Shown one piece after another: positions 48,477-52,111 of a stretch of 64,000 nucleotides of DNA. Origin of the DNA: Lingula anatina (Eukaryota > Animalia > Brachiopoda); contig CM120645.1 in assembly GCA_051362555.1 (NCBI GenBank), forward strand, positions 4,154,001 to 4,218,000, in the 5' to 3' direction. Made by a program: the position numbers and the translations under genes. How positions within the stretch are numbered: position 1 is the stretch's first letter; each line of letters opens with the position of its first letter. Under the pieces are notes generated by a model that saw only the letters and a program-made list of their open reading frames with translations, did no database searches and was not told the DNA's origin.

Positions 48477-48667
48477 ATGTTGAAACTCGCGCTGTGCTTT
48501 GTTGCCGTCCTTGCCGTGGCCCTTGCCATCCCGGGCACTCTCTACTACCCGGATGAGACTGGCGCACAACGCCTGGTTTACTACCCTCGAGGCTACAGAG
48601 GTCCGCAAGATTACGGTAGTGGGATACGTCTAAGCCCTGCAATATCTGCCTTGGTTAGGGACTACAA
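48477..48667 (+). CDS. Secreted YYP gene B, exon 1 (signal peptide + YYP domain)
   Basis: MLKLALCFVAVLAVALA-IPGTLYYP...RLVYYPRGYRGP; AA|gtgagt phase-2 donor. Confidence 0.88.
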
Positions 48668-50552
48668 GTGAGTATACCTAACAAGTGTATTCGCGTGCTT
48701 AACGTTCTTACCGTTGACACTAAAAACGCCGTGTTCTCCCATGCAAAAACATAGATTTTTCAATCTTCATCAAATGCCGATTAGAAATTTTGATAGCTGG
48801 ATTAAGTTTGATCGACAATAGTTATTTTGCCCAGCAGAGACAAAGGTTTAGGTATTATTGGACTGCAAGTTATAACTCGATCCAGACACGGTATGTGAAG
48901 CAATTAGCTACAGAGATCATTCCATCGTGAAGAGAAATTATCCTTTGTTGTTCTGAATGTGTAAATTAGCATCATGCTGCTTTAATTAAATCATAATCAC
49001 GCTATTTCAATTAATTACCCCTGGATTGACGTGTTTTAATCTCGCATGACGTCACTAAGTGCCAACAGTCTTGTTTAAGGCGGTTATGACGTCATTCTGT
49101 ACCGACAGTCTCGTTTTAGGCGTTTATGACGTCACTTAGTGCTGGACATCTACGAAGATCAACACTGAATAATATTGCCAATAATAATAATAATTCATTA
49201 CCGTCTCTGGTCATTATAAGCCTCGGTGCAAGATCAGAATTATGATGCTTTGAAATCTTAGTTAAAATATATAAGGGTCCAGCTTAGTAACATAAAGTCT
49301 TGTCATTGGTGATCATCATATGGAAAACGCATTTATATAAAAACCTGAATTCACAAATAAGGCGAAGTAGTGACTCGAGACAATAAACCGTTTAAATTCC
49401 TTTCATTAATTTTAACATAAATTCTGCATCTGTTCTATGAGATATAGTTCGAAGGAATGGATGTGTAGATGGATTTTCTCAACGTTAGTACAGATAGGCA
49501 GTCTGTTTGACTGCCTATCATCCCGGTTTACCCCCTGGTTTATTTGACTGCCCGTTTGGCTGTTTGTCTTCAGGGACGTCATTCTCAATCTTTCCCATCT
49601 GCTGTCTGACATGCGAATCGCTAAAGTTGGTCTTAAACCCAATATCAAGCTGCACAAGGTTGTCATAAGAATTGCGAATCAAATACTTACCAATTTCTTC
49701 CTCACATAAAAATCATTTTAAAATGAATTACACATATTCATCACTTTAACATGCTAAATGCGTGCTTTAAAGCGATTATCTTTCTGCATGAAAATCTCAG
49801 GCCTATGAGAAAAGTGATCTGTAAGCTGAGTGATCATAATGAGATTTTTTCTTCCGTTTAAGAACAACAAGTGTTGTTCTCTAAGTCATGAAAGAAAGAA
49901 AGCTTTGTTTGTTGAAATGTCTGATATTGTGCAATAACGACCCAACCCCCCTTTCTTCATTACAGGTTCCATCGAAATAATTGAAACATTTATCTTGAAG
50001 GTTAAATATTTCGGTAAAACCGCTTTGACGGCATTTGAGACACTTATTTCATTAATACCATAACATGTTTGTCATAAAACGATTCTTGTTGATTTTGTTT
50101 TTATTTTCATCTTTAAACGACTAAATTCATCTTGTTAAAATTTCTTTCATTTTCAACAAACGCTTGTTTTAAATGATTTTGTCACAGTCCGTGCACTAAA
50201 GCAGAGTTATTCTAGACACGAAAAATAATAATCGGAACCGGAAGGTAGGTTACTCAGGACAGTGCGCATGTCCCAATCCTCGGATTAACAAAAACATCGT
50301 TAAGCTTTGGATACCAGTCAGTTTCTGTCAGTTCTTACTTCACATCAGAATCACGCAGAAAAAAAAAACGTCTGTCAGAACAATGTTGCAAATTTTTATT
50401 TAAAAATCTGCAAGTCAGAACGAGACCAAAATAGTATCCAGCACAACCCTTAATGTATTAGCTACTTCTTTAGTGTCGTTTTGACTATACAATGCAAAAA
50501 CCTCATGTAACTGCAATATTCATGCATCTTGATATGTTTCAATCTATTCCAG

Positions 50553-50619
50553 TGCTCCACCTCCAGCAGGTGCCGTTGAGACCGACCCACAACCCCCTCC
50601 TCGACGCCCATATCGCAGG
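50553..50619 (+). CDS. Gene B alternative exon 2a (N-APPPAGAVETDPQPPPRRPYRR)
   Basis: ttccag|T GCT CCA CCT fits phase 2; start paralogous to exon 2b; phase-0 gtaatg donor. Confidence 0.7.
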
Positions 50620-50658
50620 GTAATGACGTTTATAAATGTATCCACAATATCGTTTCAG

Positions 50659-52111
50659 TGCTCCACCACCTGCTGGGGCTATTGAGTCTGATGCTGGTGC
50701 TGCTGACCGCGCCAAGGCTGCTGCTGACGCCCGCGCCCGCGCCCAAGCTGAGGCTGCAAGACGTGCTCAAGCCCAAGCTGAGGCTGAAAGGCGCGCTCAA
50801 GCCCAGGCTGAGGCTGAGGCCCGTGCCCGTGCCCAGGCTGAAGCTGAAAGACGTGCTCAAGCACAGGCTGAGGCTGAAGCCCGTGCTCGCGCCCAAGCTG
50901 AGGCCGAAGCCCGTGCTCGTGCCCAGGCTGAGGCTGAAGCCCGTGCTCGTGCTCAGGCTGAGGCTGAAGCCCGTGCCCGCGCCCAAGCCGAGGCTGAAGC
51001 CCGTGCCCGCGCCCAAGCCGAGGCTGAAGCCCGTGCCCGCGCCCAAGCCGAGGCTGAAGCCCGTGCACGTGCTCAAGCTGAGGCTGAAGCCCGTGCCCGC
51101 GCCCAAGCCGAGGCTGAAGCCCGTGCTCGTGCCCAAGCCGAAGCTGAAAGACGCGCTCAAGAACAGGCTGCTGCTGAGGCTCGTGCCCGTGCTCAAGCTG
51201 AAGCTGAGGCTCGTGCTCGTGCCCAAGCTGAGGCTGAAGCCCGTGCTGCTGCTGAGGCCCGAGCTCGTGCACAAGCTGAGGCTCAGGCTCGTGCTGAGGC
51301 CAACGCACGTGCCGCTGCTGCTGCTCAGGCTGCTGCCGAAAATGCTGCCGCTCGTGCCCATGCTCAGGAAGCTGAATCTGGTCGTCTGTCTGGTGTGGCT
51401 GCTGCTGCTACCGATGCTGCCAATGCTGCCTTTGCCACATACGAGGCCAAGAAAGCCCAGTCTGACAGGGAAGCTGAGACCGCCGCCGCCGCTGCTGCTG
51501 CTGCTGATCGTGCCGAAGCTGCTGCCCAAGCCTCCAATCAAGCCAAAGACGATGCTGTTGCAAGAGCTGCCGCCGCTGCCAGTGCTGCTGACGAGGCTGC
51601 CACCGCTGCTGAAGCTGCTGCCGAGAAATACAACACTGCTAAAGCAGCCGCCGACGATGCTACATCCCGTGCTACTGAAGCTGCCGAGCTCTCCAGCAGT
51701 GCAGCCGCGGCCGCAGAGACCGCCAAAGCCGCCAAGACTGACGCCACCGCCAGAGCTGCTCAGCTCGCTGAGGCCGCCGCTGAAGCTCTTAGAGCTTCCC
51801 AACAAGCAGCAGGTGCCTACCACGCAGCCAAAGACGAGAAGGCTTCCCTTGTTGCCAAATCTAATGCAATTGATGCCCAGAGAGATGCCGAAGCTGCATC
51901 CAGACTGAATGTTAATATCTCCCGGCAGCGCGAAATTGCTGCCGCCCGTGCACGTGCTGCAGAGAGAGCACGTGCTCAGGCCGAGGCTGACGCTAGAGCC
52001 GCCGCTGCTGAAGCTGCTGCACGTGCTGCCGAAAGAGCCGCCGCTGCTGCTGCTGACTATTATAGAAGATTTTCTTTCCGTGGCTACTACGGAAAGGCGC
52101 CTTACTACTAA
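50659..52111 (+). CDS. Gene B alternative terminal exon 2b: Ala-rich repeat protein (547 aa with exon 1)
   Basis: tttcag|T GCT CCA CCA fits phase 2; variation between repeats is mostly synonymous in this frame; ends [24 protein letters not shown] at 52240. Confidence 0.9.
50727..51300 (+). repeat. Coding 30-bp tandem repeat (~17 units, [10 protein letters not shown] / [10 protein letters not shown])
   Basis: The 30-nt period is directly visible. Confidence 0.95.

Follow-up and report, generated by a model that had tools for sequence, protein, structure and literature searches.

We describe a locus of Lingula anatina that joins one first exon to either of two mutually exclusive second exons, so that the spacer between the same Tyr-rich protein ends is swapped by splicing. 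It lies in a window of 64,000 nt, which is the whole stretch of DNA that was analysed; the coordinates are given in Table 1. The 91-aa short form is the major product of the gene. The long form (547 aa) is very likely the counterpart (orthologue) of the shell-matrix protein XP_013380692.1, an assignment that rests on shared peptides. The long protein is already catalogued but uncharacterised, and it is neither new nor an orphan; the new observation is the splice switch between the two second exons, of which we found no earlier report. Among the matches listed, neither of the two Lingula proteome papers uses the term 'alternative splicing' in its main text.

Table 1. Features of the locus (positions in the window).
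Feature	Position	Strand	Basis
Paralogous first exon	46203..46387	+	Own TATA box (46155); GT donor in same phase
TATA box upstream of exon 1	48431..48437	+	Motif scan; many read starts at 48472-48479
Exon 1, common to both isoforms	48477..48667	+	Spliced reads; GT donor at end
Exon 2a, short isoform, 22-codon Pro/Arg-rich linker	50553..50619	+	Joint 48667>50553
Exon 2b, coding part, long isoform	50659..52111	+	AG acceptor; joint 48667>50659; shell peptides of XP_013380692.1
Decad array, 16 strict decads, residues 94-253	50747..51226	+	Repeat count on translation
Ala-rich region, predicted long helix	51407..52087	+	AlphaFold
C-terminal Tyr/Arg/Gly tail of long form, ending Tyr-Tyr, and stop	52058..52111	+	Translation
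Intron in 3' UTR of long form, starting ~40 nt past the stop	52150..52436	+	Joint 52149>52435
Last exon	52437..52600	+	Joint 50618>52436; 3' UTR of both forms; AATAAA at 52591

Eight of nine RNA runs labelled with the species were aligned to the window, each read to 6-30%; X4 gave no reads and X5 almost only repeats. An earlier sequence-only reading had spliced exon 1 to the Ala-rich open reading frame and had named the joint 48667>50659 beforehand as the one to look for. This joint is present in three of the eight runs, with 12 reads in X7, six in X8 and two in X9, and joining 48477-48667 to 50659-52111 gives the open frame of 547 aa, with 43% Ala. Reads from exon 1 into exon 2a (48667>50553) number 106, 29 and 26 in the same three runs, and those from exon 2a into the last exon (50618>52436) 158, 37 and 26. 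Over X7, X8 and X9 together the junction reads stand at 161 for the short form versus 20 for the long form, about 8:1. The excess of the short form is not a 3' bias, because the joints into the last exon in X7 stand at 158 (short) versus 10 (long; joint 52149>52435, GT..AG, cut +2). The gene model of the sequence-only reading is therefore right for the long form, but it missed the dominant short isoform (50553-50619, 52437-52454) and the paralogous first exon (46203-46387). The long form has its 3' UTR intron close enough to the stop (52111-52150) for it to fall inside the limit for escape from nonsense-mediated decay, which is usually quoted as 50-55 nt from stop to intron. Long open reading frames on the opposite strand and in shifted frames over the repeat were dismissed as by-products.

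X7, X8 and X9 come from one study, and at a stricter setting their reads are mostly 90-95% alike to the window; they therefore represent a divergent population or a sister species. Among the listed rows, with codon 52032-52033 omitted, 11 of the 14 read differences in the long exon were classified as synonymous. In the same three runs, reads that 'go back' at 51430>51317 pile up over 51317-51430, a joint that the five other runs do not list. A rearrangement at this point was considered and rejected, as the loose ends fit, by eye, a published peptide of XP_013416053.1, a Maxi-like Ala-rich shell protein. The pattern in X7-X9 fits co-expression with another Ala-rich protein in shell-secreting tissue.

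Exon 1 codes for a predicted signal peptide (~17 aa, read from the sequence and from the table entry of XP_013380692.1) and a Tyr/Gly/Pro block with two copies of YYP. In the short form this is followed by the 22-codon Pro/Arg exon and by five terminal codons from the last exon (Arg, Tyr, Arg, Tyr, Tyr; stop at 52454), so that the mature protein has ~74 aa, a pI of 9.7 and 11 Tyr. The first 11 codons of exon 2a duplicate the start of exon 2b (9/11 identical by tblastn). Exon 2b supplies the decad array, then the Ala-rich helical region and then the Tyr/Arg tail. The long form has a pI of 6.9 and a mass of 56.0 kDa, and its mature chain is near net neutral, with 79 basic versus 80 acidic residues. 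Its Tyr-rich ends are as the sequence-only reading described them, with YYP twice at one end and [17 protein letters not shown] in the C-terminal tail, and 13 of the 16 Tyr residues fall within the first 63 or the last 17 residues. Both isoforms have the same layout: an N-terminal YYP block, a spacer and a Tyr/Arg tail ending in Tyr-Tyr. Motif searches of the available parts of the 2026 shell proteome supplement (PMC13425148) found no peptides of the short form.

The upstream first exon also carries a signal-peptide sequence; it shows 65% identity with exon 1 across 52 aa and is open in frame with either second exon. No Tyr-rich second exon of its own occurs within 46400-48460. X1, X2 and X3 have few reads on this exon and none on exon 1, X1 and X2 have few reads on the long exon, and no junction from the upstream exon is listed in X1, X2 or X3. 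Judged from its sequence, it may be an alternative first exon.

Searched exhaustively against 1.84 billion representatives, exon 1 gave four matches. The only credible one is L. anatina XP_013404387.1 (105 aa, E = 5e-4), which carries the automatic label 'prismalin-14-like'; the other three were rejected as long repeat proteins that align over a short stretch only. XP_013404387.1/XP_013412963.1 have 42% identity to exon 1 over 53 aa and 62% to the upstream exon over 39 aa. XP_013404387.1 has a Tyr/Gly/Arg tail ending in Tyr-Tyr, like both isoforms; the pair lacks the Ala-rich rod. XP_013404387.1 does not appear in the available parts of the 2026 supplement (PMC13425148). Exon 1, the upstream exon and the long exon were all without a Pfam family. 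Word-index protein searches gave no match with exon 1 at near lengths (one candidate), with the C-terminal region (7,994 scored) or with the three-sequence alignment at longer lengths (8,000 scored), by a method that also missed XP_013380692.1. The Atlas gave no usable match for the long exon and, for exon 1, arthropod cuticle-like clusters below 0.9, which we take as a lead only.

Elsewhere in the window there is an intronless rhodopsin-family GPCR open reading frame at 37264-38337 on the reverse strand (Pfam 7tm_1, E = 8e-25). Exons of a G-protein α subunit, which we take from their motifs to be Gi/Go-like, lie at 16373-17634 on the forward strand, with a 161-bp tandem repeat array (17590-18748) directly after them. 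A short MITE-like element with inverted arms has three related copies (40111-40291, 41583-41795 and 61306-61452), and an inverted repeat at 60758-61056 has 123-nt arms that are 90% complementary and 53 nt apart.

The 2026 Lingula anatina shell proteome (PMC13425148) lists XP_013380692.1 as an uncharacterised 'A rich' protein of 534 aa with a signal peptide and seven peptides; in the available part of its iBAQ-ordered shell table it is fifth of the first six rows. All seven peptides map to the long exon, six of them exactly and one with an E/D change at residue 407, which the RNA reads carry at 51688. They cover 159 residues here versus 28.3% of 534 (~151) in XP_013380692.1, in line with one decad fewer in the latter; the long form is 13 aa longer, about one decad, and the masses are 56.0 kDa here versus 54.6 kDa, both with a signal peptide. 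This places a very probable orthologue, by mass spectrometry, in the Lingula shell matrix, and so bears out the earlier suggestion of an extracellular matrix or fibre protein; nothing points to glue, which had also been proposed. The sequence-only reading had named membership of an already described family as something that would tell against it, and this applies in part: the protein is catalogued, but it has had no functional study, and the available parts of PMC13425148 give neither a structure nor a function for the entry, and neither an analysis of its repeats nor a short isoform. Gene 22634 (PMC4595640, Supplementary Table 25, seen in part), compared by its table description, may be the same gene as ours or a paralogue. 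At 530 aa, it resembles the long form in having 2% Gly, 14% acidic residues, a signal peptide, eight peptides and mantle enrichment, and differs in Ala content (38% versus 43%) and pI (8.7 versus 6.9). The poly-Ala shell proteins 18759-18761 ('antifreeze protein Maxi'-like) are, as far as the available description goes, likewise secreted, Ala-rich, predicted to be helical and found in the shell, with Tyr motifs. They are basic proteins of 103-253 aa with R(A)4-5 blocks and GYGY; membership of this family was rejected for the window protein, which has no GYGY, 547 aa, a pI of 6.9 and charged alternating decads. Nothing comparable was found in the available parts of the Magellania proteome paper.

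The sequence-only reading had counted ~17 decads with Ala at every second position. TRF counts 17.5 copies of a 30-nt unit (50723-51247), and the translation has 16 strict decads, of which 11 are exactly the consensus [10 protein letters not shown] that had been named as the main variant; the count stands, but four of the 16 put Arg on the Ala face. Within the strict array 75 of the 77 Ala residues are on one parity, against a maximum of 52 in 100,000 shuffles, and over residues 82-281 Ala fills 95 of the 100 positions of one parity. Residues 260-527, over half of the chain, show no alternation (65 versus 65 Ala on the two parities). The Ala-rich region has a weak heptad periodicity (Fourier peaks at 3.5 and 7.0, given without a significance estimate), with one heptad position occupied by Ala or a larger hydrophobic residue in 21 of 25 cases; the decads, unlike this C-terminal half, have no hydrophobic heptad periodicity.

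The first eight residues of the decad are those of the designed peptide EAR8-II (AEAEARAR; PMC3876047), and the likeness to EAK16/RAD16-type peptides seen earlier is thus a close one. Such peptides form β-sheet fibres, and the decads could pair in this way: in an antiparallel register 52 of 76 polar positions are salt-bridged with no repulsions. This is weak evidence for a sheet, because four of the six possible orders of E, E, R and R are equally self-complementary; in a parallel register complementarity is only 38/78 because of the Gln spacer. As a helix, the decads have 38 of 78 i+4 pairs of opposite charge and none of like charge, and of six orders EERRQ alone combines two E-to-R i+4 pairs with the absence of like pairs. 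The hydrophobic moment of the decad is 0.03 at 100° versus 0.46 at 180°, and a helix therefore leaves the strict Ala alternation unexplained. For the exon 2b product AlphaFold predicts helix (DSSP) at 10-238, 250-394 and 402-476, with block pLDDT values of 81-91 over the decads, in a single-sequence model that has a pTM of 0.26 and is blind to aggregates; the C-terminal part alone is predicted as one helix. Foldseek on the PDB gave no matches, VIA-align gave generic long helices (best Z 9.6, uninformative), and a PDB sequence search with the core gave only low-complexity QA-type matches. EAK16 is presumably located in the middle domain of zuotin. In the full protein that domain is a long helix (PMC8060413, in part), and alternating Gln-Ala blocks in model peptides form coiled coils (PMC4049302, in part). 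For EAK16, too, modelling had indicated a helix, and the peptide turned out to be β-sheet (PMC2387071, in part).

In the available spectra of L. anatina shell (PMC9057340) amide I is at 1654 cm-1, assigned to α-helix, with an alanyl band at 905 cm-1; β silk has amide I near 1668 cm-1. The 1654 cm-1 band was recorded in bulk on shell treated with peroxide and is overlapped by glycosaminoglycan and chitosan at 1657; its source may be another Ala-rich protein of higher abundance (iBAQ 4.85 million versus 0.63 million in the available table). The prediction, the i+4 order, EAR8-II and the shell spectrum all favour a helix and none is decisive; by model and analogy, the resting state of the decads is more likely helical than β-sheet. 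The salt-triggered nanofibres that the sequence-only reading had put forward as the working state are accordingly disfavoured. That the protein is stored as a helix and then rests as EAK16-like β-sheet nanofibres in seawater is, to us, distinctly unlikely: the alternation at 95 of 100 positions, the near-zero net charge and the antiparallel complementarity agree with it, and EAR8-II does assemble into thin fibres (PMC3876047, in part), but that peptide is also more helical than EAK16-II by FT-IR, the shell amide I is not where β silk has it, the Gln spacer lowers the parallel fit and over half of the chain does not alternate.

On balance we think it somewhat likelier true than false that both forms are cross-linkers within the organic layers of the shell of chitin and apatite, with a predicted helical rod as the spacer of the long form and a Pro-rich linker as that of the short form. 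The common layout of the isoforms, together with the tail of XP_013404387.1, suggests two-ended cross-linkers of different reach. The long form would fold as a charge-neutral helix of ~460 residues, ~70 nm at 0.15 nm per residue, its decads stabilised by an uninterrupted Glu-Arg-Gln ladder of i to i+4 contacts, and such helices would bundle through their Ala surfaces, chiefly in the heptad-like C-terminal half. The Tyr/Arg ends would bind chitin or glycosaminoglycan, chitin by analogy with other Tyr/Gly-rich matrix proteins; shell oxidases would then cross-link the bound ends, and splicing would set the distance between the two anchors. Tyr cross-linking of the ends is plausible because a tyrosinase-like and a laccase-like protein occur, together with peroxidasin, in the same shell proteome (PMC13425148, in part). 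None of the seven detected shell peptides comes from the Tyr-rich ends, which is compatible with cross-linking but no demonstration of it.

A variant in which the rod is deposited as a helix and strain or drying turns its decads into antiparallel β-sheet, absorbing energy, the sheet being locked by the pre-encoded Ala face and an E-R/Q-Q face, is in our judgement unlikely. One sequence satisfies both geometries, EAK-type peptides change between sheet and helix, and whelk egg-capsule proteins undergo a reversible coil-to-sheet transition under load (PMC9999432, in part); the argument is from sequence and analogy, the antiparallel fit is weak evidence and Arg sits on the Ala face in four of the 16 decads. 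Put together, we give only a small chance to a ~70-nm helical strut, anchored by Tyr at both ends, whose decads snap to antiparallel sheet under strain or drying, with a locus of two first and two second exons tuning the spacer from ~25 to ~460 residues. If true, Lingula would build its flexible phosphate shell with an EAR-type switch that is natural and encoded in its genes.

The decad face has also been considered as a mineral template, on which Glu-Glu-Arg-Arg would bind calcium and phosphate alternately and orient apatite. The spacing of an extended-strand face is near the apatite c-axis repeat. The orthologue occurs in an apatite shell, and Luo et al. detected no secreted shell proteins of acidic character in Lingula, so that other templates would be needed; the charges of the decads are nevertheless paired internally and net neutral, and the template would require an extended state, with binding that is predicted. 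We regard it as very doubtful. Of all these readings we prefer the cross-linking one.

How an alanine-rich matrix contributes to the flexibility of the Lingula apatite shell is a standing question, and Ala-rich proteins have been catalogued only. The locus offers a cheap handle on it, with a synthesisable 10-residue repeat, the octamer of which is already on record as a designer peptide. Among the matches listed, no publication was found that connects Lingula proteins with ionic-complementary repeats, in a literature that leaves out the majority of subscription journals and the older work on Lingula shell chemistry; AEAEARARA in the literature searched occurs only in a designed hydrogel paper (PMC8950079, in part).

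Among known systems, EAK16-II, EAR8-II and RAD16-II share with the decads Ala at every second residue and - - + + on the other face, and here the EAK16/RAD16-type ionic complementarity is known from sequence alone, as alternation with a modulus II charge face. Unlike these peptides, the decads have a period of 10 with a Gln spacer and run for 160-200 residues inside a longer Ala-rich chain. The whelk egg-capsule proteins (PMC9999432, in part) are, like the long form as predicted, secreted helical rods with a non-helical head and tail, but they have canonical hydrophobic heptads; the likeness is one of layout. If the decads go from helix to sheet, a design hitherto known from synthetic biomaterials would have a natural counterpart at work outside the cell; if they stay helical, the biomineral matrix would contain a helical strut of orderly build.
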